Part shown: positions 17,862 to 51,024 of the stretch, one piece after another
How the letters are laid out: each line of letters begins with the position of its first letter
Position numbering within the stretch: the first letter of the stretch is position 1
Source of the DNA: an uncultured bacterium
GTDB lineage: Bacteria > Fidelibacterota > Marinisomatia > SCGC-AAA003-L08 > JACNLC01
Length of the DNA stretch: 51,533 nucleotides
NCBI GenBank assembly: GCA_964607375.1
Contig: CAZSJY010000004.1
Coordinates: forward strand, 1-51,533
Direction: 5' to 3'
Translations under genes and position numbers: made by a program
Notes under the pieces: generated by a model
Database searches by the model: none
What the model was told of the DNA's origin: nothing
The model's input: the letters and a program-made list of their open reading frames with translations, nothing else

Positions 17862-18134
17862 TAATAACTTCCCTATCAACAACTTAGTCTATATAAACGC
17901 TAATGTCCTCAAAAACCAACAATTCTTTCTAATTTTCATTATTGCTGTCCAAGACAAATTAGATTCCGTTTTATATTGATACATTAGTTTTTCAAGCTCG
18001 ACGAGAGTTATTTGTTTTGGACAGATTGGAATGTGGTGAGTTGTAGGTTGTTTAAATTGTGTAATTGGTTGAATAGTTGTAAACTTTATTATGTGTTTTA
18101 TACTATGTCTTATACCAATTTAATGGTGATTAAA

Positions 18135-34760: not shown

Positions 34761-36140
34761 TTAGTCATTACTTTGGTTAGGTAAAGTAATTGTTACAATA
34801 AAGCCAGGATTAGCATTAGCAAATGTAATTGAACCATTATGGTATTCGACTATTTTACTGCAGATTGCTAATCCTAATCCAACACCAGTTTTGGGTGAAA
34901 CATTTTGATCTGAACGATAAAATCTCTTTGATAGGATTGGGATTTCTTCTTCGATTACTCCAGGTCCATCATCGCGTATGATCAACTTGATATTATTATC
35001 AATTTGTTTCAATATTATTTCAATAAATCCATTTTCATAGTTGTATTTAATTGCATTATCAAGAATATTACGAATAAGCATCTTCAACCATTGTTTATCA
35101 CCTGAAAACTCTATAGAATCTACTTCAGTTAAACTCAATTGTAATCCCTTTTGTGCTATATTGGTTTGGAAGTGAGTTATGGTATCAAAAACAAGATCAT
35201 TCATCCAGACTTTTTCTTCAACAATTGGGCTTTGGGAAGATTCCAATAGTGCTAAATTTGTCAATGTTTATGTTATATCTTCAAGATATCTGATTTCTTC
35301 ACTTATTGAATCTACAGATTCCTTTATGTGTTCTTTGTCATCAGAGGTTAAAACGGATGAGATTTCACTTTTAATAATTGCTAATGGTGTTTTGAGTTCA
35401 TGAGATGCATTTGCACTGAATTGTTTTACCGATTTGAATGATTGTTCCAAACGATTTAGTAAACCGTTAATCTGTTTAACCATATTTGAAATTTCTTCAT
35501 CTTTGCAATCAGTGAGAATTCTAGTTTTTAGATTTTCTCCTTTAATGGAGTTTAATTGTTGAGTAATATTACCAAATGGTCGGAGTGATTTTTGGCTTAT
35601 ATACAAACCACCGAAATAGCTCAACAATAATCCGAAAATTAAAACAGGAATTAATGTTGCTAAAAACGACTTTTTATATTCTGTAACTCTTTTCATTGTA
35701 ATCGCGGCATTAATGTATCCAATAATTTCATCATTATCTTGAATAGGTTTTGTGATTCCTCGAATATTATAAGAGTGGAAATTTGCATTATAGAATTGGT
35801 TTTTAGTTTTTGGCCAAGGGAGAGAGTTGTCTTGTAAATTATCTGTTTTATGTGTGATTTCATTATGTTGCATAATTTCAACAAAAATTGGGTAATCAGA
35901 GCCAAGAAGATGTTCAGGTTCTGTCCATTCTCTAGAATATGAAATTAGCAAACTATCATTTTTGTACTGTAGAGTATATGCCATTTCATCAGCTTCAATT
36001 AAAAGGTGTTCATCAATTGATTTTTTTATCAAGTTAACATTTGAGAAATAGTTTATCATACTTACAATAAAGAGTATCAACAGAAATACTATGGTAGAAA
36101 CTGAAGCTAATTTTTGTCGAAGAGAAGGAAAATAGATCAT
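34761..36140 (-). pseudogene. CusS/CzcS-like HAMP sensor histidine kinase interrupted by one in-frame TAA (35268-35270)
   Basis: 2 TM, HAMP, ASHELKTPL, then EDIT*TLTNLALLE continuing in frame into NILDNAIKY, DDGPG, GVGLGLAI. Confidence 0.85.
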
Positions 36141-36811
36141 TGCTCTATGGATATTTTGTATCCTATACCACGAACAGAATGAATAAGAGAATTAGCACCA
36201 TTGTAATGCAACTTATTCCGCAGATAGTTGATGTAAACATCTACAATATTTGATTCTGGGGAAAAATTTAATCCCCATACTTCCTTCAGAAGTACTTCTC
36301 TTGATTGGGGTTTATCCAAATTCAACATTAGAAATTCGAGGAGTTCATACTCTTGAGTGGAAAGAAAAATTCGTATATTGTTTCTTGTAATATGTCGATT
36401 TGATGTATCAATTACCAAATCATCAATTTCTAAAGTAGTATTTTTTTCTAGTTTGCTTCTTCGATAAAGTGAGTGAATTCTTGCCACTAACTCTGAAAAG
36501 TCAAATGGTTTACAAAGATAATCATCTGCACAGGTTTCAAGAGCCTTTACCCTATGTTGAACTGAATCCATCGCTGTTAACATTAAAATTGGAGTTGAAA
36601 TATCAGTTTTTCTTACATCTTCGCAAATTTCAATACCGGATTTTTCTGGCAACCTCCAGTCTAGGATAATGATATCAAATTTGTTTTGAGAAGCCATTTC
36701 GAAACCGGATTTCCCATCAAAACAAATTTCAACAGTCATATTTTGTTTTTCTAACTGTCGAGCAATTGAACGAGCAAGCTTAATTTCGTCTTCTACAAGT
36801 AGAATTTTCAT
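36137..36811 (-). CDS. OmpR-family response regulator (CusR-like)
   Basis: ILLVEDE, IILDWRLP, DDYLCKPF, SNIVDVYINYLRNK, VRGIGY. Confidence 0.92.
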   Translation of the reverse strand: MKILLVEDEIKLARSIARQLEKQNMTVEICFDGKSGFEMASQNKFDIIILDWRLPEKSGIEICEDVRKTDISTPILMLTAMDSVQHRVKALETCADDYLCKPFDFSELVARIHSLYRRSKLEKNTTLEIDDLVIDTSNRHITRNNIRIFLSTQEYELLEFLMLNLDKPQSREVLLKEVWGLNFSPESNIVDVYINYLRNKLHYNGANSLIHSVRGIGYKISIEQ

Positions 36812-36860
36812 AGTATAAATTAAATATCCTTTACTGTTATATATCAAAATAAAATATGTT

Positions 36861-36876
36861 TATTAGAGTATTCTAA
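36861..36876. promoter_or_regulatory. putative operator TATTAGAGTATTCTAA, copy 1
   Basis: TTAGA-GTAT-TCTAA dyad ending 85 nt before ATG 36961; identical copy at 40190-40205. Confidence 0.65.
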
Positions 36877-36960
36877 TTTTTATTTATCATCTGCTAAAAG
36901 ATACATTTGTTTAGGATATATATGAAACATATTAATCATTAATTAGAAAAAGGAAAAAAA

Positions 36961-39900
36961 ATGAAGAATTATAAAATTACATTTAGTTACAAAGTGATAC
37001 CTATGGTAGCTCTTTTAGGTATGTTAATTTCGTTTGTATATCCAGAACATAATTCTGGTTACAATTGTATGAATTGTCATTTTAACAATGGTCCGGGAGA
37101 TGCAGTGTTTGATTTTTCAGGAACAGTGTATTCCTCATCTCAGGGAGGTAGTCCAATGTCGGGTGTGACCGTGAGAATACAAGATAGCACAGGTCATATT
37201 TTTACAGAAAACACACATAATCCAACTGGAAATTTTTGGATGGAAACCGATGAAGATGACAGAGTAACTCCTGTCCCTCCTTATACAGCAACAGTTTCAA
37301 AGGATGGGGTCACAATTCCTATGGTATCTGCATTTTCTAATGGATCGTGTAATAGTTGTCACAATAGTAATATGAGGATATTCTTTGATGAAAACTACAA
37401 TAATGATCCTCCAACAGTAGTAATAGTTTCACCTGCAAATGGAGATAATTTTGAAATATCTGATATTGATGTAGAGATTTTATCAGAAAATATTACTGAT
37501 GGTGATTACTTTAATGCTTATATCGATGGTATTTTAGTAGGTACATTTTCTTCAACTGCATTTACATTGCAGGATATTTCTGATGGAGAACATAATCTCG
37601 AAGTAGCGATAGTTGAGAGTAACGGACAAGAATATGATAATCCTGAAGCAAGAGCAACAGTATTTTTTACGATAAATTCTTCCTCAACTTTGACAGTTGA
37701 TTATTTGACACAAATCCAGCCAATATTAAACAACAATTGTGTAAGTTGCCATAGTTCAAGCTGGGCTGCAGGGGGAGCGAGTTACGAAGATTATAATTCT
37801 ACAATTAACACTGGAGGTGTGGTACCTTTCGATCATTCAAGTAGTTTAATGTGGCAAGTTGTAGACAATGGAAGTATGCCTACTAGTTACAATTTAAGTA
37901 GTAGTGATATAGATTTGATATCTCAATGGATTGATGAGGGAGCATTGCCTGAAGGCTCGATTTCTTCTCCTCCAATTTCTGGTTTTACATCAGATATAAC
38001 AAATGGTAATGCACCCTTATCAGTTAGCTTTACCGATATTTCTATTGTTGGCGATGCTCCAATCATTTCTTGGGATTGGGAATTTGGTGATGGTGGTACG
38101 AGTGTAGAACAAAATCCTACATATGTTTATTCAAATGTAGGTACTTTTTCCGTTAGTTTAACAGTTGTTGACGAAAATGGTTTATCAGACTCAATTACAG
38201 AAATTGACTTTATCACAGTTACTGAAGAACAAGTGAATCCAAACTACCCAAATTGGTCTGTTAATCCACCCTCGTTTGAATTTAATATGACCTTAACCAG
38301 TGTTATATTCTTTAATGGAGAAGAGTCATTTGATGAAAGTGATTTACTTGGTGCATTTGTAGATGGAGAATGCAGAGGTTTAGCGTCACCGTCATTTTTC
38401 CCCGTTACAGAACACTATACAATAAATTTAATAATTTACAGTAATCTGACAACAGGAGAAGAAATTACATTCAGAGCTTATGATTATTCGGAAGATATTG
38501 TTTTTGAAACAGTAACAGAAACAATTAGTTTTAATGTAAATGATAATCAAGGAAACGATATAAGCCCAATTGAACTTCACGCCATCTCTGAACAAATGGA
38601 TTTGATAACATTAATAATACCTCAGGAAACTGCATTTACTGGTGATGACATTTCACTCGGAATTGCACTTGACTTACCACCTGATGTTTTTTTTAATGCA
38701 ATTGAACTTAATATAAATGGTTATTTTGATGGTTTGGATTTAGTTTCAATAACTACAGAAAATAGTTTATCTTCAAGCTGGGAAGTAGAATATAATGAAG
38801 TTGATGAGGAGTTATTAGTTGCTCTATACGGTTCGAGTTCTATTGAATCCAGTGGAACCTTGTGTTATCTCGATTTTGTAATTGAGGAATCGGCTGACGG
38901 TTTTATTCCGATTAATATATCGGATGCAATTATTGATGAAACTTTGTATGATATAAACTTAGTTTCAGGTGGTGTAGAAGTTGAAGGTGGTGTTCCTCCT
39001 GTTGCAGATTTCTCTGCTACGCCTGTAACTGGTTTTGGAGAATTGGATGTTCAATTTACAAATCTGTCTGATTTAGGAAATGGTGACATAATTTCATATC
39101 AATGGGATTTTGGAGATGGTGGAACTTCGAACGAAGAAGATCCATCGCATACTTATTATGAGATAGGTATCTACTCCGTAACTTTGGAAGTTAGTACGAC
39201 TTTTGGTTACGATGAAGTTACTCAAACAGACTTAATTATTCTGGGAATTGCAGGGGATGTAAGTTTGAATGGAGAGGTTCACGCTTACGATGCAGCATTA
39301 ATTCTGCAATACCTAGTTGATGAACAAGAACTATCGCCTCTTCAGTTATTCAATTCTGATGTTAGCTTGAACAATGTAGTAACTGCATACGACGCTTCTT
39401 TGATAGCTAAATTCGTGGTTGAATTAATTGATGATCTTCCATATCCTGAAGTATTATCAGCTGATGGTGTGATTTCTATGAATGATCTTGAGATTTATTC
39501 TCAACAGGATCAGATTTCTATACCATTGTATTTGACGGAAGGTGAGAATATTTTGTCATTCGAAACAGAAATCGAATTTGATTCTGAATTGTTGAATCTA
39601 GAAAATATTATTTGGCCAAATCAAGAAGATGGTTTTATGATTGAGATTAATGAAGATGATGGTATAATCAAAATTGCAGGAGCTGGCCAAACTCCCTATG
39701 GAAATGAGGAAATATTTGCTGAGTTAATATTTGAAAGTGAAAGTGAATTTATTGGAGAAGCTGTAGTAAATATTTCATCTCATCGTTGGAATGAAGAAGA
39801 AATTCAGGAAGATATTACTCAATCAATATTAACGTTTGTACTTGACATATCAAGTAATGAAATTCCTAATGATTTTCAACTATCTAAAATATATCCCAAT

Positions 39901-40131
39901 CCTTTCAATCCAACTGCAACCATTGAGTACTTATTACCAATTCAAACTAGTATTGAGTTAGTAATATTCGATTTACAAGGATTGCAAGTGCAGGAAATTT
40001 GGAATGGTAAACAAGTTGCAGGTATCCACCAAGTTTCCATTGATGGTTCTGAAATGACAAGTGGTGTATATTTTGTAAGGATGACAACTCCATATAATAG
40101 CCAAATACAGAAACTTGTTTTAATGAAGTAA
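36961..40131 (+). CDS. secreted triheme cytochrome c with 2 PKD, 2 cohesin-like, dockerin and C-terminal sorting domains
   Basis: Signal peptide; CMNCH, CNSCH, CVSCH; two WxFGDG; GDVSLNGEVHAYDA..SDVSLNNVVTAYDA; YPNPFNP..KLVLMK. Confidence 0.85.
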   Translation: MKNYKITFSYKVIPMVALLGMLISFVYPEHNSGYNCMNCHFNNGPGDAVFDFSGTVYSSSQGGSPMSGVTVRIQDSTGHIFTENTHNPTGNFWMETDEDDRVTPVPPYTATVSKDGVTIPMVSAFSNGSCNSCHNSNMRIFFDENYNNDPPTVVIVSPANGDNFEISDIDVEILSENITDGDYFNAYIDGILVGTFSSTAFTLQDISDGEHNLEVAIVESNGQEYDNPEARATVFFTINSSSTLTVDYLTQIQPILNNNCVSCHSSSWAAGGASYEDYNSTINTGGVVPFDHSSSLMWQVVDNGSMPTSYNLSSSDIDLISQWIDEGALPEGSISSPPISGFTSDITNGNAPLSVSFTDISIVGDAPIISWDWEFGDGGTSVEQNPTYVYSNVGTFSVSLTVVDENGLSDSITEIDFITVTEEQVNPNYPNWSVNPPSFEFNMTLTSVIFFNGEESFDESDLLGAFVDGECRGLASPSFFPVTEHYTINLIIYSNLTTGEEITFRAYDYSEDIVFETVTETISFNVNDNQGNDISPIELHAISEQMDLITLIIPQETAFTGDDISLGIALDLPPDVFFNAIELNINGYFDGLDLVSITTENSLSSSWEVEYNEVDEELLVALYGSSSIESSGTLCYLDFVIEESADGFIPINISDAIIDETLYDINLVSGGVEVEGGVPPVADFSATPVTGFGELDVQFTNLSDLGNGDIISYQWDFGDGGTSNEEDPSHTYYEIGIYSVTLEVSTTFGYDEVTQTDLIILGIAGDVSLNGEVHAYDAALILQYLVDEQELSPLQLFNSDVSLNNVVTAYDASLIAKFVVELIDDLPYPEVLSADGVISMNDLEIYSQQDQISIPLYLTEGENILSFETEIEFDSELLNLENIIWPNQEDGFMIEINEDDGIIKIAGAGQTPYGNEEIFAELIFESESEFIGEAVVNISSHRWNEEEIQEDITQSILTFVLDISSNEIPNDFQLSKIYPNPFNPTATIEYLLPIQTSIELVIFDLQGLQVQEIWNGKQVAGIHQVSIDGSEMTSGVYFVRMTTPYNSQIQKLVLMK

Positions 40132-40152
40132 ACTTCAAGTAACAATTTTAAA

Positions 40153-40190
40153 AATAGAAAAACGCTCTCATTGGAGAGCGTTTTTCTATT
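40153..40190 (+). terminator. intrinsic terminator, potentially bidirectional
   Basis: Perfect 17 bp stem AATAGAAAAACGCTCTC-attg-GAGAGCGTTTTTCTATT. Confidence 0.85.
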
Positions 40191-40205
40191 ATTAGAGTAT
40201 TCTAA
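40190..40205. promoter_or_regulatory. putative operator TATTAGAGTATTCTAA, copy 2
   Basis: Identical to 36861-36876; ends 89 nt before ATG 40294. Confidence 0.65.
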
Positions 40206-40293
40206 CTGTTTTCACTAAAATGTATTTAATATTTTACGAATGAGAATACAATGAGTATTCATTTGAGTAAATCAAAAAAAGAAGGGGAAAAAA

Positions 40294-43200
40294 ATGAAAA
40301 GAGTAATGATAATATTAACAATATTGAGTGCTTACTTTTGTGTAAGTTTCGCTCAATCTGAGGAATTTGAACCTCGGCAACCACATTATTCAGGATACAA
40401 TTGCTCTAATTGTCACAGTTTTGAATTTGGAGGAACTGTATATACTGATGCAAGTGGGGGTTCACCGGTTTCAGGTGTTCAAGTGCAAATTACTGGAAGT
40501 AATGGGAGTACAGCAAACTTTACTACTAATTCTTATGGCAATTTTTGGACATCAAGTTCTTCACCAACACCTCCATATACTACTTCAATTAGTTATAACG
40601 GAAATACTATCTCGATGGTTTCCAGTTTTTCTGATGGGTCGTGCAATGGGTGTCATTCTAATGGATCACGGATTTATGTTCCACCGACACAAAGTCCACC
40701 AACATCAAACTTTACAGGAAATCCAACAAGTGGTGATGTACCTTTGTTAGTCAATTTTACAGATCAATCTTCACAAGGTAGTAGTGCAATAACCAGTTGG
40801 AGTTGGAATTTTGGAGATGGTGGCTCTAGTTCTATTCAGAATCCAACACATACTTACAATTCTGTGGGGACTTTTTCAGTAACTTTAATGGTTACCGATG
40901 CAAGTGGTTTATCTGATTCATTTACTAGAACAAGTTACATAACCGTAAATCAGGCACAGTTTGCACCTCCAACTGCAGAATTTTCAGCAAATCCAATTAC
41001 TGGAAATGCACCTTTGTCAGTGAGTTTTGTCGATTTATCAACACCAGGTGATGGAGCTATCACAAATTGGAATTGGAGTTTTGGAGATGGTGGTTCTAGT
41101 TCTATTCAGAATCCAACACATACTTACAATTTAGCTGGTACTTTCAATGTTAGTTTAACTGTAACTGATTCTAATGGTTTGTCAGATACATTTAATCAAA
41201 CAAATCTAATAACAGTTAATGGAGAACCTACACCAGGTGAGTATGTTTTGATAGCTTGGAGCAAGGGTGGAATGCATTGTATGAATTCTAATTTTGATAA
41301 TTTTATGATTCTTCCACCTGCTAATACTATACAAGCACAATTAATCTATAAAACAGACAATCAATTCCCGGATATTGTTACAGATGGTTATAGAATTGAA
41401 TATTCAATACCGGGGAATACATATTCTGTAGGAAAAACCAATTTTTGGGATTTTGCAAGTGATATATTTGGCACAATGATACCAGAAAATATTGGACTAA
41501 CAGGTAATGGAATGACTGGTGAAATGGAAATTTCAGATAATTATTTTTTAGCTTCTGCAATTCCAATAACACCATTTACTGATTCAGATTGGAATACTTT
41601 AGATCCATATCAATTGATTCATTTGGAAGCATATTCTAATGCAACTGGTGAATTAGTTGCTTCATCTGATGTAACAATTCCTGTAAGTACAGAAATGCAC
41701 TGCGTGGATTGTCATGGTTCTGAAACAAATATATTATTTGACCACGAAGACGAATTTGATCCTAACAATACACCGATTGTTTGTGGAAATTGTCATGCTC
41801 AAAATCCATTAGGATTTCCTGGTATTCCAGAAGCACTCTCATTTTCATATCAAATGCACAAAAAACATGCGAGTGAAGTTGGTCCTGAAAATTCCATTTC
41901 ATCTTGTTATAAATGTCATCCGGGTCCAGAAACTCAGTGTTTGAGGGGTACAATGAATGAAGACTTTGGAATGGTTTGTCAAGATTGCCACGGTACTATG
42001 AATGATGTATGGCAATCTATTGAAAATGGTCGAGAACCTTGGGTAGATGAACCCACCTGTGGGGAATGCCATGGTGAAAACTATGCTGAAGAACCAAATA
42101 CGCTTTACCAAGCATCAAAGGGACACGGAGATATGTTCTGTTCAGCTTGTCATGGTAGTACACATGCTATCTATCCAACTCGAGAAGCAAATGACAACTT
42201 GCAAAGCATAGCACTTCAAGGGCATGCTGGCACAATATCAGAGTGCACAGTTTGTCACTCAAGTGTACCTGGTGGTGCTGGTCCGCACGGATCAGATAAT
42301 CCACCAGACTCACCACCTCCACCCACTAATTTAACTGCTGTAGGAGAAGTAGGAGATTATGATATGGATGGAATTTTTGACAATGCAATTAAATGGTCTT
42401 GGAATCATCAAGATTATACTACTTCTGTAGATTGTAATGGTGATGAAATTCCTGGATGGTGGATTGATGAATTTGTTGGAGATGGAAATTGTGATGTACT
42501 TTTTGATTGCGAAGGATTTGATTTTGATGGAGGAGATTGCTCCGACTTTGAAAATTGTGGGACTTCGTTGGTAATCACAAATACCGGAGATTATGACGAT
42601 GATGGGGAGGAAAATGGTCCTTGTTGGTCAGATAACTCTGCATATTTCTATTTTAGCTGGGAAGGTGGTTGTTTGGCAACAACTCTATATTATAGCGGAG
42701 CTCAAGATGGAATGGATTTAACATCTTACGGATTTACAGATGGTTTTTATTTTTATGGTTTTGATAATGATGTAACAGAAGACTTCACTTTAGATTTTGA
42801 CGACGGTTCAAGTGCAAATCAAACGGCAACTTCAGGTATCTGTGATGCTACAGAATGTGCCGAAGGATATATCCAAGATTGTGTTGATGAAGACTGTATT
42901 ATAGAAAATTGGATTGGAGATGGATATTGTGATGGCATTTCTCAAGAGTGGGGAGCTGATCTTTGTTGTTACGATCTGGATGGTGGAGATTGTACTGAGG
43001 AAGAATGTGCTGATGATGATAGATCTATTGGTGAATCTTCAAAATTTATTAGTGCATCAAAGTTAGATTCGCAAACTGTATCTAAACTTTCAAAAGTGAA
43101 TAGAAATAGAACTCTTAATAATCGTTATGATTATGTTACCTTTGAAATCTCTGTAACTTGGGATGGTGGTGGAAATACTTGGGTTACATCCGGAACAGAA

Positions 43201-44445
43201 TTTTTGGTTTACGGATTTGAACAAGGTGAGATTGGTTGTGCTTCTGTAGTCGCAGTTGGGAATGATGGGACTGTGTCAGAATCTACACCAGAAATATGTG
43301 CAAGTGCTGGTGATCCAGCAGGTGAAACAGAAATTTCCATTGATATGAGTGATGGTTGGAACTGGTTCTCTGTGAATGTTGAAGCAGAAGATATGAGTTT
43401 AGATGCTGTTCTTTTATCACTCGGTAGTGATGCAACTTTGATTAAAAACCAAACCGGTTTTGCAACATATTACGACGACTTTGGATGGTATGGTTTAGAT
43501 TTTATAGATGTAACAAGTATGTATATGATTTTCTTGGAAAATTCAAGTGAACTTGTTTTTGCAGGAACTGCAGTAGATTATGAAAACACACCAATTAGTT
43601 TATCTGAAGGTTGGAACTGGATTGGCTATTTACCACAAGCATCTAATAATCTAGACGAAGCTCTTGATAGTATTGGAGAAAGTGCTTCTATGATAAAAAG
43701 TCAAACTGCTTTTGCTACTTACTATGAAGGTTTTGGTTGGTATGGAATGGATTCTCTCGATCCAGGTGTTGGCTATATGTTAATGATGTCAGAATCAGCA
43801 GAATTAATTTATTCTTCACCGACTACTCTGATTAAGAATGTTGCTGAATTTACAGAACTATACTGGACGGTAAATCCACATCAATATGAGAATAATATGA
43901 CAATGACAGCATACTTTAATGAAATTGGAAAAAGTGATGTTCTTGCAGCGTTTGTAGGTGACGAAATCAGAGGTGTTACTGGTGCAACTTACTTTCCACC
44001 AATTGGGGCACATACTTTCAATCTGATGATATATGGTAATCCAGGTGAAGAAATCCGATTTGTTGTTTATCAATCTTACAAGGATGTTGAAGTTGATATT
44101 GAAGAGAATATTACCTTCGTTAACAATGGTAATTTGGGGAATGATTTTGAACCAGTTATGTTAAAAGTGAAAGTAATTCCGATAGCTTATAATCTTTCTC
44201 AGAATTATCCTAATCCATTCAATCCAACTACTACGATTGAATACGATTTACCACAGGAAACATTCATTACAATTGATATCTACAATGTAATGGGTCAGCG
44301 GATTGATGTATTATTAAACAGCAATCAAGTTGAGGGATGTCATAAAGTTGTATGGAATGCAGATAGTTATCCAAGTGGTATCTATTTTGTTAGAATGGTG
44401 ACAGAAACATTTGAAATGTCAAGGAAGATGCTTCTTGTGAAGTAA
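40294..44445 (+). CDS. secreted nine-heme cytochrome c with 2 PKD, LNR-like Cys repeats, GWNW repeats and C-terminal sorting domain
   Basis: Signal peptide; 9 CxxCH counted; GDGxCD..DGGDC twice; NYPNPFNP..KMLLVK. Confidence 0.87.
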   Translation: MKRVMIILTILSAYFCVSFAQSEEFEPRQPHYSGYNCSNCHSFEFGGTVYTDASGGSPVSGVQVQITGSNGSTANFTTNSYGNFWTSSSSPTPPYTTSISYNGNTISMVSSFSDGSCNGCHSNGSRIYVPPTQSPPTSNFTGNPTSGDVPLLVNFTDQSSQGSSAITSWSWNFGDGGSSSIQNPTHTYNSVGTFSVTLMVTDASGLSDSFTRTSYITVNQAQFAPPTAEFSANPITGNAPLSVSFVDLSTPGDGAITNWNWSFGDGGSSSIQNPTHTYNLAGTFNVSLTVTDSNGLSDTFNQTNLITVNGEPTPGEYVLIAWSKGGMHCMNSNFDNFMILPPANTIQAQLIYKTDNQFPDIVTDGYRIEYSIPGNTYSVGKTNFWDFASDIFGTMIPENIGLTGNGMTGEMEISDNYFLASAIPITPFTDSDWNTLDPYQLIHLEAYSNATGELVASSDVTIPVSTEMHCVDCHGSETNILFDHEDEFDPNNTPIVCGNCHAQNPLGFPGIPEALSFSYQMHKKHASEVGPENSISSCYKCHPGPETQCLRGTMNEDFGMVCQDCHGTMNDVWQSIENGREPWVDEPTCGECHGENYAEEPNTLYQASKGHGDMFCSACHGSTHAIYPTREANDNLQSIALQGHAGTISECTVCHSSVPGGAGPHGSDNPPDSPPPPTNLTAVGEVGDYDMDGIFDNAIKWSWNHQDYTTSVDCNGDEIPGWWIDEFVGDGNCDVLFDCEGFDFDGGDCSDFENCGTSLVITNTGDYDDDGEENGPCWSDNSAYFYFSWEGGCLATTLYYSGAQDGMDLTSYGFTDGFYFYGFDNDVTEDFTLDFDDGSSANQTATSGICDATECAEGYIQDCVDEDCIIENWIGDGYCDGISQEWGADLCCYDLDGGDCTEEECADDDRSIGESSKFISASKLDSQTVSKLSKVNRNRTLNNRYDYVTFEISVTWDGGGNTWVTSGTEFLVYGFEQGEIGCASVVAVGNDGTVSESTPEICASAGDPAGETEISIDMSDGWNWFSVNVEAEDMSLDAVLLSLGSDATLIKNQTGFATYYDDFGWYGLDFIDVTSMYMIFLENSSELVFAGTAVDYENTPISLSEGWNWIGYLPQASNNLDEALDSIGESASMIKSQTAFATYYEGFGWYGMDSLDPGVGYMLMMSESAELIYSSPTTLIKNVAEFTELYWTVNPHQYENNMTMTAYFNEIGKSDVLAAFVGDEIRGVTGATYFPPIGAHTFNLMIYGNPGEEIRFVVYQSYKDVEVDIEENITFVNNGNLGNDFEPVMLKVKVIPIAYNLSQNYPNPFNPTTTIEYDLPQETFITIDIYNVMGQRIDVLLNSNQVEGCHKVVWNADSYPSGIYFVRMVTETFEMSRKMLLVK

Positions 44446-44458
44446 TCTGACTCAAGTA

Positions 44459-44496
44459 AAGAGAGTGGTAGGAAAACCTCCCCCTACCACTCTCTT
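44459..44496 (+). terminator. stem-loop after the nine-heme gene (leaky terminator or RNA stabiliser)
   Basis: 14 bp stem AAGAGAGTGGTAGG/CCTACCACTCTCTT with a poor U tail. Confidence 0.6.
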
Positions 44497-44530
44497 ACTA
44501 CCTTTACCTCAATAATGGAAGGAGCTTTCA

Positions 44531-45004
44531 ATGTTAGTAAATGGAGAAAAAACTAAAGTCTTAGAAGAAATGGAAATCTTCAAAGGAATTTCTAAAGGAG
44601 ATTTGGTTAGAATATCAGATATATCATCTGAAGTTAAATTCCCGAAGAAAAAAGTTGTATTTGAAGTAGGTGACATAGGTGATTATCTAATGGTAATTAT
44701 TCGTGGAAAGGTTAAAGTTCATCGCAATGGAACAATAATTACCAACCTTAGCGCAGGAGCATGTTTTGGTGAGATGTCTATCTTCAGTTAAGAAAAGAGA
44801 TCTGCATCAATTACAACAGAAAGTGAATGCGTTTTATTGAAAATTTCGCAAGATGATTTTTTGCAAGTTCTATCACATAATACTCCATTGTTGAAAAATA
44901 TAATTGGTGTGTTAAGTTCTCGAATTAGAGAAACAAATGATCTCTTATTTCAAAAAATGAGAGATTGTACAGAAATTTGGGAAAAGGGGACAGCACTACA
45001 TTAG
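44531..45004 (+). pseudogene. stand-alone cyclic-nucleotide-binding domain protein interrupted by in-frame TAA (44789-44791)
   Basis: FGEMSIFS*EKRSASITTESECVLLKISQDDF... stays open to TAG at 45002-45004; GGAG RBS. Confidence 0.85.
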
Positions 45005-45019
45005 TAAAAAAAACAATAT

Positions 45020-45952
45020 ATGAATGTTCATGATAATAATAAAATGATGTTAACTTTCGATATCTATGAGGAAGAATATTTGAAAGTTTTCCACAAATTT
45101 ATTTTGATATTATTTTCATTGGCATTACTTACTGTTTCTTTTTGGTTTATTCAAAATGCAGGTGAATATTATTTAATTCCTCTTATCTCTCGGCCACAAC
45201 ATATTGCTCATAATCTGTGGAAACCTAGCGGAATATATGGACATACAGTAGGCATCATTGGCACATTAATGATGGTTTTTATGTTATTGTATTCAATAAG
45301 AAAACGCATAAAATTAATGAGAAGATGGGGCGCATTACCAAATTGGTTAAATTACCACATTGCACTTGGCATTGCTGGACCATTACTAATTACTTTCCAT
45401 ACTTCCTTGAAACTTGGTGGACTTGTTTCAGTAGCATATTGGGCTATGGTTTCTGTAGTTGTTAGTGGATTTATTGGAAGATATATTTACATTCAAATTC
45501 CGCACAATAGCGATGGTAATGAGATTTCATTATCAGAGCTCAAAGAGACTTACAGTAATTTTATAAAATCATTAACAGAGGAATTTAATATCTCTGAGAA
45601 AAATATTAAGTTGATTGAAGAGAATCTCAACATAGATAAAATTTCTCAAAGTAGTTTAACCTCTATATTTTTCCTTTTATATTCAGATATTTTTGGATGG
45701 ATTAAATCTAAAAAAGAGTATAGTAGTCTAATCACGAGATTTGGAGTACCTATATCAAAAACAAAACAATTTAGGAAAATCCTAAAGAAAACTACTAAGA
45801 TATCTCGTCAAATTGCGTTTTGGAATTCTGCACAAAAATTATTTCATTATTGGCATGTGATTCATAAACCATTTGCCTATGCAATGACCTTAATTGTGAT
45901 TTTACATATCACGATTTCATTTATCTTTGGTTATACTGGGTGGTTTCTATGA
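45020..45952 (+). CDS. multi-pass membrane protein, ferric-reductase/cytochrome b-like (start may be TTG 45080)
   Basis: About 5 hydrophobic helices with His at WLNYHIALG, TFHTS, WHVIHKP, ILHITI. Confidence 0.7.
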   Translation: MNVHDNNKMMLTFDIYEEEYLKVFHKFILILFSLALLTVSFWFIQNAGEYYLIPLISRPQHIAHNLWKPSGIYGHTVGIIGTLMMVFMLLYSIRKRIKLMRRWGALPNWLNYHIALGIAGPLLITFHTSLKLGGLVSVAYWAMVSVVVSGFIGRYIYIQIPHNSDGNEISLSELKETYSNFIKSLTEEFNISEKNIKLIEENLNIDKISQSSLTSIFFLLYSDIFGWIKSKKEYSSLITRFGVPISKTKQFRKILKKTTKISRQIAFWNSAQKLFHYWHVIHKPFAYAMTLIVILHITISFIFGYTGWFL

Positions 45953-47262
45953 ACCACGAGCCCATATTTACTTGGTTTCTTGGAATAATAATACTTCTTG
46001 CGTTTGTTATCCCATACATTTACAGTATTAGAAAAAAAGAAACTGAGACTAAACTTAGATTAAAAAAGACCAAATTGTTAGGGCAAGATAAGCCATTTGT
46101 CCAACATCCTATTATAAATCGTTCGGTATGTATAGGGTGTGGTATTTGTGTAGATTCTTGTCCTGAAGGAGATGTTTTAGGATTATTGTATGGTCGGTCA
46201 ACAATTATTCATGGAAGCCATTGTGTTGGTCATGGACAGTGTGCTGCAAACTGCCCAGTAGGTGCTATTGGTGTTGGATTGGGGGATATTAGTGAAAGAG
46301 AAGATATTCCATTACTAACAGAAAACTACGAAACAAATATACCTGGAATCTATATTGTAGGTGAATTAAGTGGTTTTGCGTTAATTAGAAATGCTATTGA
46401 ACATGGTGTGACAGCTGTTGGTCGAATTGCTCAAAATATGAAGAGTCATTCAAAAGAAATGTATGATATTGTAATTGTTGGAGCAGGACCTGCAGGCTTG
46501 GCTGCTGCACTCAAAGCTAAAGAACTTAAACTCAATTACATTGTGATTGACCAATACGAGCCTGGTGGAACAATTTTACATTACCCAAGAAGAAAACTCA
46601 CTTTAGTACAAAGAGTTGCACTTCCACTTTATGGCGAATTAAAGAAATATGAGTACTCAAAAGAAGAACTATTAGACATTTGGACTTCGCTCATCAAAAC
46701 TCATACTCTTAACCTCCAAACAAACTGCAAACTACTAAATGTTACACAACCAAATGGACATTTTTCTGCACGGACAACAGAAGGTGAGTTAAAGACTAAA
46801 AATGTTATTTTAGCACTTGGAAGACGAGGAACTCCTAATAAATTGAATATCCCTGGTGAAGAAACAAGTAAGGTAATGTACAAATTGATTGACGCAGATA
46901 CTTTCAAAGAACAGAATATTATAGTAGTTGGAGGTGGGGATAGTGCGATTGAAGCAGCTATTGGTTTGGCAAGCCAACAAGGAAATCAAGTTTTAGTATC
47001 TTATAGGAAAGCTAATTTTTTCAGACTAAAAGCTCGAAACGAAACAAATCTAGAGAAAATGATGAATGAAAAAAGACTCTCTGTGCTATTCAATTCTAAT
47101 CTTAAAGAAATTAAAACAAAGGATGTCAATATAGATTATTCAGGTGAAACTATCTCAAAACCTAACGATTTTGTATTTGTATTTTCTGGCGGGGAAGTAC
47201 CATTTCCTATACTCCATTCGTTGGGAATTGAATTCGGAAAAAAAATCATACCTAAAGCTTAG
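45940..47262 (+). CDS. membrane-anchored 2x[Fe-S] ferredoxin fused to a thioredoxin-reductase-like FAD/NADPH oxidoreductase
   Basis: N-terminal TM; CIGCGICVDSCP, CVGHGQCAANCP; GAGPAG; GGGDSA and YRK; no CxxC redox pair in the flavoprotein part. Confidence 0.87.
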   Translation: MVSMNHEPIFTWFLGIIILLAFVIPYIYSIRKKETETKLRLKKTKLLGQDKPFVQHPIINRSVCIGCGICVDSCPEGDVLGLLYGRSTIIHGSHCVGHGQCAANCPVGAIGVGLGDISEREDIPLLTENYETNIPGIYIVGELSGFALIRNAIEHGVTAVGRIAQNMKSHSKEMYDIVIVGAGPAGLAAALKAKELKLNYIVIDQYEPGGTILHYPRRKLTLVQRVALPLYGELKKYEYSKEELLDIWTSLIKTHTLNLQTNCKLLNVTQPNGHFSARTTEGELKTKNVILALGRRGTPNKLNIPGEETSKVMYKLIDADTFKEQNIIVVGGGDSAIEAAIGLASQQGNQVLVSYRKANFFRLKARNETNLEKMMNEKRLSVLFNSNLKEIKTKDVNIDYSGETISKPNDFVFVFSGGEVPFPILHSLGIEFGKKIIPKA

Positions 47263-48662
47263 TGGTTAAAAGAGTGAAACACTCTATCATATTACATACT
47301 ATTTTATCGATTGTCTATTCTCAAATATCACCAGGACCCTTAGCTGAATTACATACTCATTTAGAAGGAATTAATAATTGCACTCAATGCCATGAACTAG
47401 GAAAGAAAGAATTAAATAGTGGATGTTTAGATTGCCACACTCCTTTAAAAACTCTAATTGAGAATAAGGTAGGATATCACAAAGACAAGTATGATAATTG
47501 TGAAAAGTGTCACCTAGATCATTATGGCTTTGAATTTAATATGATATTTTGGCCTGATAGTATTCACAATTTTAACCATTCTGAAGCAAATTATGAACTA
47601 AATGGTAAACATCAAAAACTTGATTGTAAACAGTGTCATAACCAAAAATATATTGTTAAAGATGAGGTTATAAATTGGTACAAAGAAAATCAATCAATAA
47701 ATGGACTAAATCGCTCTTTTTTGGGGTTATCACAAAAGTGTTTCACTTGTCATAAGGATTATCATCAAAAACAAGTATCCATAGAATGTCAGAATTGCCA
47801 CGATACTCAAAATTGGAAAAATGCGATTCAAACTTACAATCATGATAAATCGGAATACATACTAGATGGAGCACATATATCTGTAGAATGCGAGAAATGT
47901 CATATTCCTTTTGATAATAATACTCAAATGTGGAATCTTACGATGTTGCAATATGAAAACTGTTTATCTTGTCATGAAGATATTCATTTGTCAAGTTATG
48001 GTAAAAATTGTAAAACTTGCCATTTTACTTCACATTGGACAAAAGAACTAAAGTACTTTGAACACGATTCAACTATGTATAAACTTCGAGGGAAACATAA
48101 AAATGTTGTTTGTCTTAAATGTCATAAAGAAAATGTGAGAGGTGAAAAGTTAGATTTCAAATCGTGTTCTTCTTGTCACATTGATGTACACAAAAAACAG
48201 TTTTCTAAGAAATTATGTGATGAATGCCATACTGTGGAGAGATTTTCTCCATCAACGTATACAATTAGAGATCATAATCAGTCTAAGTACAATCTTGAAG
48301 GTTCTCACATTGCAGTTAAGTGTGATGAATGTCATTTAACTGTAACAGCTGATTCCGCAAAAACAGTTCAATATAACTTTGAAGATCAAAGCTGTATTCA
48401 ATGCCATAAAGATATTCATCGAAATCAGTTTACAAAACACGAATCAGACCAATGTGAGCTTTGCCACAATACGAATTCATTTTCGATAGTTGAGATTGAT
48501 CATAATATTACTTCATACCCATTAGATGGAAAACACCAAAATGTTAATTGCAACGAATGTCATTTTACCATTGATGATGCAATAGGTTCTTTCGTCCAAT
48601 ATACGGGTTTCCCATATCGTTGTGAAGATTGCCATATACTTAAGGAACTAGAAACCAAATGA
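47262..48662 (+). CDS. 17-heme periplasmic cytochrome c (c7/c3-like repeats)
   Basis: 17 CxxCH counted; repeated H...Y.L.G.H..xCxxCH unit; signal peptide before QISPGPL. Confidence 0.92.
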   Translation: MVKRVKHSIILHTILSIVYSQISPGPLAELHTHLEGINNCTQCHELGKKELNSGCLDCHTPLKTLIENKVGYHKDKYDNCEKCHLDHYGFEFNMIFWPDSIHNFNHSEANYELNGKHQKLDCKQCHNQKYIVKDEVINWYKENQSINGLNRSFLGLSQKCFTCHKDYHQKQVSIECQNCHDTQNWKNAIQTYNHDKSEYILDGAHISVECEKCHIPFDNNTQMWNLTMLQYENCLSCHEDIHLSSYGKNCKTCHFTSHWTKELKYFEHDSTMYKLRGKHKNVVCLKCHKENVRGEKLDFKSCSSCHIDVHKKQFSKKLCDECHTVERFSPSTYTIRDHNQSKYNLEGSHIAVKCDECHLTVTADSAKTVQYNFEDQSCIQCHKDIHRNQFTKHESDQCELCHNTNSFSIVEIDHNITSYPLDGKHQNVNCNECHFTIDDAIGSFVQYTGFPYRCEDCHILKELETK

Positions 48663-49501
48663 AGTATTATAAACCATTTATCAGAAATTTTTTTCAACCT
48701 CGATGCATCATTTTTACAGTAATTATATTTCAAATATCAAATACTATACATTCTCAGATTATAGATTTAAACCTACCTTGTGCTGATTGCCATTCAACAA
48801 ATAGTTGGATACCTTTGAGGGCAGATATGCAATTCAATCACGACACTACGAAATTTCCACTAACAGGAAACCACCAAATAGCAGATTGCATTCAATGCCA
48901 CAATGGAACAACAGTTCAAGAAGAACATCAGTTCAAATCTGCCGAAGAAGAGTGTTTTAGTTGTCATTTGGATATTCACTTTTCTGGATTTGGAGATGAC
49001 TGTGAAAGATGCCACAATACATTTAGCTGGAATACAAAAAACTGGGTAATAAAACACGACTTTACTTTATTTCCATTATCTGGAGCACATTCAAGGTTGG
49101 AATGTGATGAATGCCATTTTGAAGGATTTACAATATTACCTAACAATCTATCAACAGACTGTTTGAGTTGTCATAACCAGAATTTTGCAAATTTCCCAGA
49201 TGTTCATGGAGGTAATAATAATTGTATTCAATGTCATAATACTAGAAGCTGGAAGCCTATTGATATGTCACACCACGATTTAATTTTTCCTATTTATTCA
49301 AGTAAACATCGCGGTGAATGGTCTGATTGTTCTGATTGTCATGCCAATAATTCTTACGAATATCAGAACATTTCTTGTGGCCTTAATGGAATCTGTCACG
49401 ACCACAGAAAAAGTAAAATGGACAAGGAACACCGTGACATAAATGGATACTTATACCAAGATCTTGAGTGTTTAAGCTGTCATCCAAACGGTAGTGAATA
49501 A
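48659..49501 (+). CDS. multiheme cytochrome c (9 CxxCH plus 1 CX5CH)
   Basis: Motifs counted in the translation; FPL.G.H repeats; N-terminal hydrophobic segment. Confidence 0.92.
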   Translation: MKYYKPFIRNFFQPRCIIFTVIIFQISNTIHSQIIDLNLPCADCHSTNSWIPLRADMQFNHDTTKFPLTGNHQIADCIQCHNGTTVQEEHQFKSAEEECFSCHLDIHFSGFGDDCERCHNTFSWNTKNWVIKHDFTLFPLSGAHSRLECDECHFEGFTILPNNLSTDCLSCHNQNFANFPDVHGGNNNCIQCHNTRSWKPIDMSHHDLIFPIYSSKHRGEWSDCSDCHANNSYEYQNISCGLNGICHDHRKSKMDKEHRDINGYLYQDLECLSCHPNGSE

Positions 49502-51024
49502 TGTATAGAATTGCATTATATACTGTATTTTTGGTTTCACTATCTTTTCCACAAACCAACAAAATCGTTAGCATTCACGGTCACATTACATATCTAACTT
49601 TAGAAAATGTTTATTGTGATATTGGAACCAATAAAAGTGTAACTCCAAACGATACATTACGAGTTTTTCGTCGTAATGAAGAAATTGGGACTTTGGTTGT
49701 TCAACAAACTTCGAGCAATTCTTCTATTTGTAATTCTCTAATACCAATTGAAGTTTATCAGTTGGGAGATAGGGTATTATTAGAAAAAATTGTTATTCAA
49801 GATATCATTAGTGACTTTGTTACTGATAAACCTGAAGTAACTGAGGAAAAACAAACATATAAATTTAATCATGATGGTAGATTTTCTTTTAGCTATAGTT
49901 ATGAGAAATTTAGTGATGAACTTGTTGACCACCACTTTTCCAATTATTTCAGGTATAAAGCTGGAGTTAATAACCTAAAAAACACACAATTATTCATCTA
50001 TGGTAAGAGTAATAATATTTCAAACAAACTGATTTTGTATCAAATGCAATTAGCTGTTAAAACCAAATCAAAAAAACTGTCTATATACTTCGGGAGATTA
50101 TTCCCAAAGGATTTTATAAGCATTGGTATTATTGATGGTCTCTTAATTGATAACAGAGTATCCCCAAATACCTCTTTTGGTTTCATAGCAGGATTTCAAC
50201 CTAATGTATATTTGATTCCTAGCATTGACAGATGGCATCATGGAATTACGATGAAAATAGAGCGGTTCAATAGAACAATTAGATTAAATGGATATTTGGC
50301 AATAGTCCAACAAATAGTAGATAAGCGAATTGATAAAGAAATTATTTATACAAGATTTAATGGAAAAATCAATTCAAATATGAATGTCTCTTTGAGACAA
50401 ACACTTGAAATATATCATTCTGATGATAAAATAGATTTTAACTCTTTGAAACTTGTTTCAAATCAGGTTTTGGTTAAAATGAGACTTTGGAAGAACATTT
50501 TACTACGGTCTCGAATTTCTTATAGTGAGCAACCAATTAACTTTGTAACAGAGTCAAATTATTTAGACACACTTATTACTACTGAATTTAGAACTGGTTG
50601 GTTTAGTTCAGTATCATATCAACACCATAAATTAGGTAGGTTTCAAACCGGAGTGAATTTACGATATGATTCAAGGGAGAAATTTTTGGCGAGAATGTTA
50701 ATGATGTTTTATAATTCTAATGCTATAAAAGATAGTTATTTTATCAGCTTCAAAAGTTACTACATAAAAAATCTGATAACCACAGGTGTTCGTAATTCGA
50801 TTGGTTGTTCGTTTACAGCAAAACTATTTTCGATTCATACTGATTATGAACATTTCATATATGGATATGGAAATAATTTGAGTGACTATCAACAACATAT
50901 TTTATCAATAAACGGTTATCTAAAAATGTCGAATAAATTAACCACAACCATATCAGTTGATTTAGTAATGGACAAAAATAATACCAGTGTGAATTTTCAT
51001 AACAATATATCTTATAGATTTTAA
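49501..51024 (+). CDS. predicted outer-membrane beta-barrel with small N-terminal domain
   Basis: Signal peptide, alternating amphipathic strands rich in aromatics, C-terminal SYRF; TAATG coupling to the cytochrome gene. Confidence 0.65.
   Translation: MYRIALYTVFLVSLSFPQTNKIVSIHGHITYLTLENVYCDIGTNKSVTPNDTLRVFRRNEEIGTLVVQQTSSNSSICNSLIPIEVYQLGDRVLLEKIVIQDIISDFVTDKPEVTEEKQTYKFNHDGRFSFSYSYEKFSDELVDHHFSNYFRYKAGVNNLKNTQLFIYGKSNNISNKLILYQMQLAVKTKSKKLSIYFGRLFPKDFISIGIIDGLLIDNRVSPNTSFGFIAGFQPNVYLIPSIDRWHHGITMKIERFNRTIRLNGYLAIVQQIVDKRIDKEIIYTRFNGKINSNMNVSLRQTLEIYHSDDKIDFNSLKLVSNQVLVKMRLWKNILLRSRISYSEQPINFVTESNYLDTLITTEFRTGWFSSVSYQHHKLGRFQTGVNLRYDSREKFLARMLMMFYNSNAIKDSYFISFKSYYIKNLITTGVRNSIGCSFTAKLFSIHTDYEHFIYGYGNNLSDYQQHILSINGYLKMSNKLTTTISVDLVMDKNNTSVNFHNNISYRF

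Follow-up and report, generated by a model that had tools for sequence, protein, structure and literature searches.

A candidate NAD(P)H-fed, quinone-bypassing porin-cytochrome module in a marine Fidelibacterota genome

Gene content of the locus

The stretch of DNA analysed here, referred to as the window, is the whole 51,533-nt contig CAZSJY010000004.1 (C4) of a 1.66-Mb Fidelibacterota genome, which was assembled in 72 contigs and rated 98.8% complete. It carries a block of five genes on the forward strand (45020-51024) that encode, in order, an inner-membrane protein, a flavoprotein with a ferredoxin part, a 17-haem cytochrome, a 9-haem cytochrome and an outer-membrane protein, and that we propose to form a conduit for electrons across the cell envelope. 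Two secreted cytochromes with 3 and 9 haem sites and a divergent two-component pair lie upstream. A previous reading made from the letters alone (hereafter, the sequence-only reading) had taken the open reading frames (ORFs) at 34761-51024 together as one candidate complete conduit from cytoplasmic NADPH to secreted, scaffolded cytochromes. All of the ORFs that it listed were recovered at the same coordinates, and the neighbours within 45020-51024 overlap by 1-13 nt, in line with the overlapping stops and starts that it had described. Its total of 38 CxxCH motifs, the covalent haem sites, was also reproduced (3+9+17+9). For the last cytochrome it had given 9 or 10 haems, of which 9 is right and 10 is wrong, as the protein has 9 CxxCH and the variants CxxxCH, CxxxxCH and CxxCK number zero in the cytochromes of the stretch.

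Six-frame translation of the entire genome gave 2035 ORFs of at least 80 aa, and only 10 of them carry two or more CxxCH motifs. Four of these 10 sit within this 12.5-kb stretch, indicating a CxxCH density beyond chance. The stretch was reproduced at no less than 95% identity by contigs of four other public runs (two studies, marine/seawater metagenomes). Altogether, eight public runs hold it, none of them an RNA run, and the organism comes from seawater metagenomes. A scan for promoters and terminators remained at the level of shuffled sequence (88 vs 86.8 and 6 vs 6.6, respectively) and says nothing on the limits of the operon.

Inner-membrane protein and flavoprotein

The first gene of the block (45020-45952, forward strand) encodes a 310-aa inner-membrane protein with five predicted helices and 12 histidines, seven of which (H75, H113, H127, H276, H279, H282, and H296) are invariant in 25 aligned relatives. 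In the AlphaFold2 (AF2) model, with a predicted local distance difference test score (pLDDT) of 85.0, the five helices are long and hydrophobic, and residues 160-270 form a helical insert. Two histidine pairs, H113/H127 and H282/H296, are spaced as Hx13H on two parallel transmembrane helices, and such pairs on two parallel helices are how cytochrome b and ferric-reductase domains classically accommodate two haems. The loop at 95-105 has a mean of 4.8 K/R and 0 D/E, and the insert at 160-272 a mean of 20 K/R. Because of these positive charges both would be cytoplasmic, and the helices of H113/H127 and H282/H296 would both run from the inside to the outside.

Weak Pfam matches among the 25 members were to DUF4405 (22/25), Ni_hydr_CYTB (13/25), and Ferric_reduct (11/25), with best E values of 1.6e-5 to 3.2e-5. 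All of them point to di-haem b families, and all stay below the gathering cut-offs. The protein belongs to no Pfam or NCBIfam family, and the protein atlas returned unnamed clusters alone. From the histidine pattern, we propose that it is a di-haem b cytochrome.

The family is large. A word search gave 312 relatives, all called "hypothetical" where named, from Marinimicrobia/Fidelibacterota, the FCB group, Gemmatimonadetes, Calditrichota, and Krumholzibacteriia, and an exhaustive profile search gave 4126 clusters at E≤1e-3, 2510 at 1e-10, and 805 at 1e-30. One relative, P0113, comes from a Calditrichota genome at isolate level. Three entries join an incomplete membrane protein to another domain, namely P0332 (886 aa) and P0363 (663 aa) to cytochrome c7 domains and P0381 (418 aa) to part of a Pyr_redox_3 domain. 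They may be genuine fusions or chimeric gene calls and were not used as evidence.

The second gene (45940-47262, forward strand) encodes a membrane-anchored protein in which an N-terminal helix is followed by two Cx2Cx2Cx3CP motifs of a 2x[4Fe-4S] ferredoxin part (Fer4_10, 2.4e-9) and by a Pyr_redox_3 domain (1.9e-46; 159 bits vs a cut-off of 30) of the flavin adenine dinucleotide (FAD)/NAD(P)H kind, similar to YpdA and thioredoxin reductase (TrxR). The closest solved relatives are YpdA/Bdr 7a7b (E 2.7e-27), thioredoxin reductases, and TrxR-type ferredoxin-NADP reductases (FNRs). The protein falls outside both equivalogs compared, scoring 160.5 bits vs 339.9 for TIGR04018 (YpdA) and 85.2 vs 343 for TRX_reduct. 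All eight cysteines lie within the ferredoxin part and no CxxC occurs elsewhere in the protein, indicating that it is not a disulfide reductase. In 32 sequences, GxGxxG (181-186), GGGDSA (331-336), SYR (354-356), R362, and K364 are invariant, and the pattern SYR..R.K resembles the NADPH 2'-phosphate site of TrxR-type enzymes. The same number of sequences showed 0 K/R before the anchor helix and a mean of 7.7 K/R in the next 22 residues, and no twin-arginine motif was found at the N-terminus. It suggests that the Fe-S and FAD domains stay on the cytoplasmic side.

Complex prediction for the membrane protein and the flavoprotein, which used our own alignments with two haems and two clusters riding along, gave a median score of 0.33 (runs of 0.19, 0.33, and 0.55; best control 0.00) and lends the pairing weak support. 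The runs shared no less than 43% of their contacts, with a partner pLDDT of 70 or higher. Of 80 solved complexes, 58 attained the mark applied, as did 2 of 110 mismatched pairs, and scores of 0.60 or lower comprised 7 of those 80 solved complexes together with both passing mismatched pairs; for a run set up in this manner, these calibration counts hold only roughly.

Multihaem cytochromes and the outer-membrane barrel

The third gene (47262-48662, forward strand) encodes a predicted periplasmic cytochrome of c7/c3-like units with 17 CxxCH motifs (Cytochrome_C7, 6.7e-18 in four stretches), and the fourth (48659-49501, forward strand) a cytochrome with 9 CxxCH motifs (Cytochrome_C7, 1.6e-8) that we propose to be inserted in the barrel. 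With 40 histidines for 17 haems and 23 for 9 haems, respectively, the supply suffices for bis-His ligation in both. With phmmer, neither protein had a match among PDB sequences. One contig of run X6 extends about 30 nt beyond the junction of these two genes.

The 9-haem gene ends at 49501, where the gene for the 507-aa outer-membrane protein starts (49501-51024, forward strand). This protein has a signal-like N-terminus, and its AF2 model, built on 36 sequences, reached a pLDDT of 85.8, with a small beta domain at 20-99, a poorly predicted linker, about 22 strands at 121-506, and a C-terminal ...YRF. Foldseek against the PDB gave 280 chains at E≤1e-3, and the hits listed were mostly outer-membrane barrels with TM scores of just 0.25-0.42, among them the FimD usher, MOMP, OccK/OccD, AlgE, and OprC. 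The model and its fold hits thus agree with the sequence-only reading, which had described 49501-51024 as barrel-like.

Conservation of the five-gene module

A pattern scan of 185,579 species genomes (one per species) gave at least 596 stretches. Relatives of the membrane protein are encoded in at least 576 of these, and the best 80 were retained as loci. Hidden Markov models made from our own alignments found the flavoprotein in 68/80 and the barrel protein in 47/80 loci, the misses falling mostly on short contigs. Forty-four loci have at least 8 kb downstream of the membrane gene. The flavoprotein was present in 44 of these, the barrel in 43, two or more multihaem genes in 43, and all three in 43, the exception being L095. 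Carriers of the membrane-protein family belong to the FCB group and neighbouring phyla and include Marinimicrobia, Calditrichota, Zixibacteria, KSB1, Ignavibacteria, and Gemmatimonadota. The flavoprotein gene follows the membrane gene in Marinimicrobia, and it stands before the membrane gene or after the barrel gene in Calditrichota, Zixibacteria, and KSB1, indicating that the linkage survives rearrangement.

Typically, the module comprises one cytochrome gene with 17-20 haems, a large one with 16-70 and frequently another with 8-10, followed by a barrel gene of about 530 aa. Wherever the barrel gene was identified, its start lies no more than about 300 nt from where the last cytochrome gene ends; directly before it stands the 8-10-haem gene in many loci and a larger last cytochrome in others. 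The co-oriented block with its named parts is therefore a conserved unit, as had been assumed from the letters, and the operon at 45020-51024 is a reduced copy of it. No description of the module or of its entry unit was found in the literature, with figures, supplements, and subscription journals outside the scope of the search; part of it could appear in the gene map that PMC4245776 gives for the Ignavibacterium album cluster (IALB_1838-1840) or in the supplementary tables of PMC7399161.

Proposed electron route and alternatives

We read 45020-51024 as a trans-envelope conduit of the porin-cytochrome kind that bypasses quinone and leads from NAD(P)H to the outside, with a two-protein entry rather than a quinol dehydrogenase, and we put the probability of this reading at about one in two. 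On the cytoplasmic side, the membrane-anchored flavoprotein would pass electrons from NAD(P)H through FAD to the two [4Fe-4S] clusters. They would then enter the five-helix protein, in which two stacked b haems would be held by H113/H282 on the inner side and by H127/H296 on the outer side, and from there reach the 17-haem periplasmic cytochrome, the 9-haem cytochrome seated in the outer-membrane barrel of about 22 strands, and finally an external acceptor. The wiring to NAD(P)H claimed by the sequence-only reading is borne out as far as the topology and the cofactor motifs agree with a path that leads electrons from cytoplasmic NAD(P)H into the periplasm; the use of that donor, the direction, and the substrate are what we infer from them.

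The weak matches of 13/25 members to Ni_hydr_CYTB (best E 3.2e-5), a family of quinone-reactive cytochromes, favour a conduit that is linked to quinone instead. The membrane protein, as a quinol oxidase or quinone reductase of the FdnI/HydC/CbcL type, would then draw on the quinone pool to feed the cytochromes, and the flavoprotein would make the pair an NAD(P)H:quinone oxidoreductase or serve as a second input, leaving an ordinary pathway like the porin-cytochrome (Pcc) systems with an unusual inner-membrane enzyme. Genes for complex I (NuoH) and cytochrome bd, four UbiA-family genes, and one NrfD-like gene are present in the genome, so a quinone pool is likely, and the known conduits for extracellular electron transfer are described in the text of PMC4245776 as starting from the quinol pool. 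However, the flavoprotein occurs in 44/44 sufficiently long loci, which would be surprising for a chain with quinol as its sole input. The Hx13H pairs on two parallel helices also span the membrane as transmembrane wires do, and no quinone-site motif was identified. We consider a quinone-linked conduit unlikely.

The other genes of the window bear on the direction of flow. They include an oligopeptide ABC importer, two M3 peptidases, a 2-oxoacid:ferredoxin oxidoreductase, a cysteine desulfurase, and an Hsp70-family chaperone, a content that suits a heterotroph living on peptides, to which an electron sink would be of advantage. Such a sink is the likely role of the conduit in what would be a microaerobic, peptide-fermenting marine bacterium. 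TrxR-type FNRs can reduce NADP+, and the same hardware could in principle run inward, from an external donor such as Fe(II), reduced humics, a partner cell, or a cathode-like surface to NAD(P)+ or the Fe-S clusters. Across organisms, porin-cytochrome systems work in both directions, as in Mto/Pio (PMC3903129, PMC4245776). But no energy-coupling element for the uphill transfer to NAD(P)+ was seen in the module and no carbon-fixation context in the window, and peptide uptake, the M3 peptidases, and the 2-oxoacid:ferredoxin oxidoreductase fit a heterotroph in need of sinks, not of sources. Inward flow therefore appears quite improbable to us.

A route that ends at the envelope was also considered, in which the module would be a supply line of reducing power for reactions in the periplasm or at the surface, such as repair, oxidant detoxification, reduction of soluble Fe(III) for uptake, or superoxide production like that of NADPH oxidases (NOX), and not a respiration-like path to solids outside the cell. 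The weak Ferric_reduct matches in 11/25 members are in its favour, as is the logic of NADPH oxidase/ferric reductase and of MsrQ-Fre, which resembles the entry unit. The organism is known from seawater metagenomes and has cytochrome bd, and no haem-copper oxidase was found in its genome. Nevertheless, 26-90 c-type haems and a dedicated outer-membrane barrel go far beyond the needs of a line that stops in the periplasm, and we give such a supply line little credence.

Several observations weigh against a quinone-bypassing conduit that ends outside. The membrane protein of the window scored 14.5-15.6 bits vs Pfam gathering cut-offs of 26.7-30.1, and its model has no PDB match (best E of 0.97 with Foldseek and 8.3 in the PDB profile search). 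As there is no fold or family match, it is the histidine pattern that speaks for haem b binding. The complex prediction passed in a weak class, rated oftener wrong than right unless the guess was already likely. The barrel protein has no Pfam or NCBIfam match at E≤0.01, thus no match to the MtrB or PioB model, and MtrB is absent among its 50 best fold hits. No outer-surface (lipoprotein) cytochrome and no further cytochrome of any kind is encoded in 45020-51024. This copy is without the large 16-70-haem cytochrome that is present in 43 related loci, and its 26 haems (17+9) are the smallest set seen between membrane and barrel genes, vs 36-90 elsewhere. Moreover, premature TAA codons interrupt both regulators nearby, the machinery for a quinone pool just named is in place, and models for three haem-synthesis enzymes (HemB, HemC, and ferrochelatase) find nothing in this genome.

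A fuller version of the proposal holds that a split NOX-like entry feeds the porin-cytochrome chain without quinone and that this strain lost the large cytochrome and gained surface cytochromes with cohesin/dockerin domains that are sorted by the type IX secretion system (T9SS). We regard this version as tentative and rather doubtful.

Comparison with known systems

In the NOX, ferric reductase (FRE), bacterial NOX-like, and MsrQ-Fre systems, electrons pass from NAD(P)H through flavin to two stacked b haems, held by Hx13H pairs on parallel helices, and on to the outside. The entry unit of the module differs from them in being split into two genes and in having five helices, not six. Its flavoprotein is TrxR/YpdA-like with two [4Fe-4S] clusters instead of a dehydrogenase of the FNR fold, and the membrane protein has a Ferric_reduct score of 14.7 bits vs a cut-off of 28. 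Its output would go to a multihaem chain and not directly to O2 or Fe(III). The flavin-based route of Listeria (Ndh2, EetA/B, and PplA) is likewise a dedicated NADH-fed path outward that serves a fermenter as an electron sink. Unlike the module, it has a special quinone and a flavinylated lipoprotein, contains no haems, and belongs to a Gram-positive bacterium.

With MtrCAB, MtoAB, and PioAB the module shares the arrangement of a cytochrome threaded through a barrel, with both genes adjacent. The solved structure of MtrB has 26 strands. By the prediction reported in PMC4245776 it has 28 strands, in either case a larger barrel than that of the module, which also differs in matching neither the MtrB/PioB models (E≤0.01) nor MtrB among the 50 best fold hits. 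The likeness to the Geobacter Pcc systems (OmbB-OmaB-OmcB) lies in a mid-sized barrel encoded beside a periplasmic multihaem cytochrome and in the presence of additional multihaem genes in the cluster. Pcc porins have 18-22 predicted strands and are paired with 5-14-haem cytochromes (PMC4245776), and the corresponding numbers here are about 22 strands and 9 haems. However, the operon has no lipoprotein outer-surface cytochrome, and its entry consists of a flavoprotein and a putative di-haem b protein, whereas that of Pcc consists of quinol-linked cytochromes (PMC4245776). The words "NADH" and "flavo" have 0 occurrences in the main text of that paper. The module, as read here, works like a porin-cytochrome conduit. 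We keep it out of the Mtr and Pcc families, since no homology of its barrel to the MtrB/PioB models was found and the outer cytochrome is missing.

A start without quinol has a parallel in the Rnf complex and MmcA of Methanosarcina, in which a cytoplasmic low-potential donor feeds a multihaem c cytochrome (10.1101/2022.07.20.500911). But the proteins are unrelated, the archaeon has no outer membrane or barrel, and Rnf pumps ions, with no such element seen here.

If the proposal is true, an NAD(P)H-started entry would be a second way to wire metabolism outward and a non-respiratory sink for fermenters. It would also give a testable function to a family of thousands of hypothetical proteins (the 4126 clusters at E≤1e-3), in carrier groups that are abundant in oceans and sediments and little cultured.

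Secreted cytochromes beside the module

Cytochrome A (36961-40131, forward strand; 1056 aa) is a 3-haem mosaic with CxxCH at residues 36, 130, and 260. It consists of an N-terminal di-haem beta-sandwich module, the third haem site, two PKD domains, a cohesin, a dockerin, and a T9SS type-A tail (PKD_4 5e-34, Cohesin 2.3e-12, Dockerin_1 1.1e-7, and Por_Secre_tail 1.4e-9). Cytochrome B (40294-44445, forward strand; 1383 aa) is a 9-haem mosaic with the same kind of N-terminal di-haem module, two PKD domains, a 7-haem NrfB/MtrC-like block (about 460-660; vs NrfB 2ozy, E 3.5e-6), a Cys/Asp-rich region, and a T9SS type-A tail. Both have signal-like N-termini, and they have in common the di-haem module, the PKD domains, a 110-aa unit, and the tail. 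The di-haem module wraps a CarboxypepD_reg-like sandwich and is 45% identical between A and B over the N-terminal 136 aa. A contig of run X5 omits 270 bp in frame (40824-41095) within the PKD repeats of cytochrome B, which is a repeat-number variant in the population.

The PNPFNP tails had been likened to type IX type-A sorting domains, and in this the earlier proposal was right, since both proteins close with TIGR04183/PF18962 at 38.5 (A) and 33.3 (B) bits vs a curated cut-off of 23. The wording "scaffolded" and "adhesin-like" found no support, as the Pfam matches to cohesin, dockerin, and PKD are all that lies behind it. Signal peptide, a PKD/cohesin/dockerin mosaic, and a C-terminal TIGR04183 domain are what FCB-group T9SS type-A cargo has; the cargo of the window differs in bearing covalent haem sites. 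For residues 320-700 of cytochrome B, 499 relatives were obtained; the proteins that contain them are 760-2421 aa long and belong to Bacteroidota, Ignavibacteriales, Chlorobiaceae, Chloroflexi, and Sulfurimonas. Many of these proteins bear a T9SS tail (PF18962), the MtrC/MtrF domain II/IV model (PF22113), or cohesin/dockerin. Within the literature scope given above, nothing was found on T9SS-sorted multihaem cytochromes or on T9SS and extracellular electron transfer, and the databases hold many such proteins. For surface cytochromes, sorting of multihaem proteins by the T9SS would be an additional, new way of export.

Whether the two cytochromes belong to the module was examined in 40 genomes of the same order by comparing the occurrence of the membrane protein with that of the haem domain of cytochrome B. 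The membrane protein was present in 9/40 genomes and the haem block clearly in 2/40, with weak matches in two more, and the two were found in the same genome in 0/40. The clear carriers of the haem block were G001 (same genus, 67% identity, 98% complete) and G004 (same family, 59% identity, 96% complete), and in G004 its copies sit in unrelated surroundings. The closest relative, G001, thus has a haem-block copy that is 67% identical and no match to the membrane protein of the module. The best matches of the membrane protein among relatives were 45-46% identical in another family and 39-44% in its own family. A recent gain or loss of the module may have taken place in this lineage.

The claim that the secreted cytochromes complete the conduit was thus not borne out, given zero co-occurrence with the module in 40 relatives. 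This result, which the sequence-only reading had itself named as refuting, concerns the complete conduit and leaves the membrane module untouched. The secreted cytochromes are an add-on outside the conserved unit and may serve as surface acceptors in this strain. Across the 80 loci, 19 ORFs had tail-like matches, and just one locus, L048, has a complete multihaem one (15 CxxCH), with a truncated one in L040. The L048 protein (L048:6059-9187, an FCB-group locus) is 1042 aa long, carries 15 haems and a T9SS tail, and is encoded immediately upstream of the membrane gene. In the Marinimicrobia locus L051, a free-standing 169-aa di-haem protein (L051:2718-3227) lies between the flavoprotein and 17-haem genes; it is homologous to the N-terminal unit of the secreted cytochromes (E 2.8e-14), and this was seen in 1/80 loci.

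The cytochromes at 36961-44445 could also be functionally unrelated neighbours, working alone or with a second multihaem cluster of this genome on contig C61. None of the nine module-positive relatives has the haem block, and none of the two genomes with a clear haem block (none of four, counting weak hits) has the module. A complete T9SS-tailed multihaem ORF beside the module in one locus of 80 is likewise what unrelated neighbours would give, and with 57 T9SS type-A tails in 1.66 Mb a cargo gene next to the module is expected by chance. On the other side, the two genes are placed between the module and a regulator pair that adjoins the module in 8/80 loci, this copy is without the large cytochrome of the others, and the di-haem unit stands inside the L051 module. 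To us, the odds that they are unrelated to the module are even.

Maturation, secretion, and haem supply

A search of the genome for maturation and secretion genes had been suggested as a check on the conduit. System II cytochrome c maturation is encoded on contig C18, where ResB (PF05140, 121.5 bits) and CcsA (PF01578, 79.6 bits) lie side by side in adjacent frames, above cut-off. For T9SS, the outcome was mixed. SprA is present, with 623 bits summed in one frame vs a cut-off of 200, and the matches to the other two components were weaker and below cut-off (a PorU-like frame of 307 bits vs 420 and a PorV-like one of 130 bits vs 250).

Molybdopterin oxidoreductase, like haem-copper oxidase, was not found in the genome, and multihaem clusters may be its main alternative electron outlets. 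The cluster on contig C61 (C61:69-11007) encodes proteins with 17 (with a C-terminal hydrophobic anchor), 11, 11, 4, and 4 haems, and it is adjoined by a 387-aa barrel-like protein ending in ...NYVF and an 822-aa TonB-receptor-like protein. A separate T9SS-tailed 8-haem protein is encoded at C15:21027-22556.

The haem-synthesis markers HemB, HemC, and ferrochelatase were not found by their models in 5/5 same-family genomes searched either, and they were found in 3, 3, and 2 of three other-family genomes, respectively. With three markers not found, all haem would have to be imported. Genome-wide, there are 93 CxxCH sites in 10 ORFs. It suggests, from gene content, a haem auxotroph that invests heavily in cytochromes, and this agrees with the many predicted haem auxotrophs reported in SAR406 (10.1101/2021.01.11.426183). 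A module in a seawater organism with no detectable haem synthesis links two questions, namely the use of multihaem cytochromes in the water column and the provisioning of haem auxotrophs.

Regulators and other neighbouring genes

The divergent two-component pair recognised by the sequence-only reading was confirmed by domain matches, with its kinase split by a TAA codon. The OmpR-type response regulator (36847-36137, reverse strand; Response_reg 5e-27 and Trans_reg_C 5e-22) is divergent from the cytochrome genes. The N-terminal piece of the histidine kinase (36140-35268, reverse strand; HisKA 8e-10), with the membrane/sensor part and HisKA, ends in a premature TAA, and the C-terminal piece (35264-34761, reverse strand; HATPase_c 4e-24) shares the frame of the upstream ORF. 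The break is a single in-frame TAA at 35268-35270, inside HisKA, where the match ends at profile position 53 of 66. The covering contigs of runs X2, X4, and X5 have 0 differences at this site. In 8 of the 80 related loci, the surroundings of the membrane protein include a relative of the regulator, at 161-211 bits.

A stand-alone gene for a cyclic nucleotide (cNMP)-binding domain (44531-45003, forward strand) is interrupted mid-domain by an in-frame TAA at 44789-44791, with cNMP_binding profile positions 2-57 before and 61-89 after it. One contig of run X6 has C at 44790 and thus reads TCA (Ser), indicating that this TAA is a nonsense polymorphism in the population. By their reading frames, both regulators adjoining the module appear to be broken in this strain.

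Recoding of TAA was considered and rejected. Genome-wide, same-frame neighbours are split by TAA, TAG, and TGA in 76, 33, and 10 cases, respectively, vs 586, 212, and 253 that end long frames; in addition, one of the two TAAs reads TCA in another run.

Farther upstream in the window, 15591-19166 encodes two proteins that are ordinary T9SS cargo for such genomes, namely a secreted endonuclease I that has lamin-tail domains and a T9SS-tailed leucine-rich-repeat protein.

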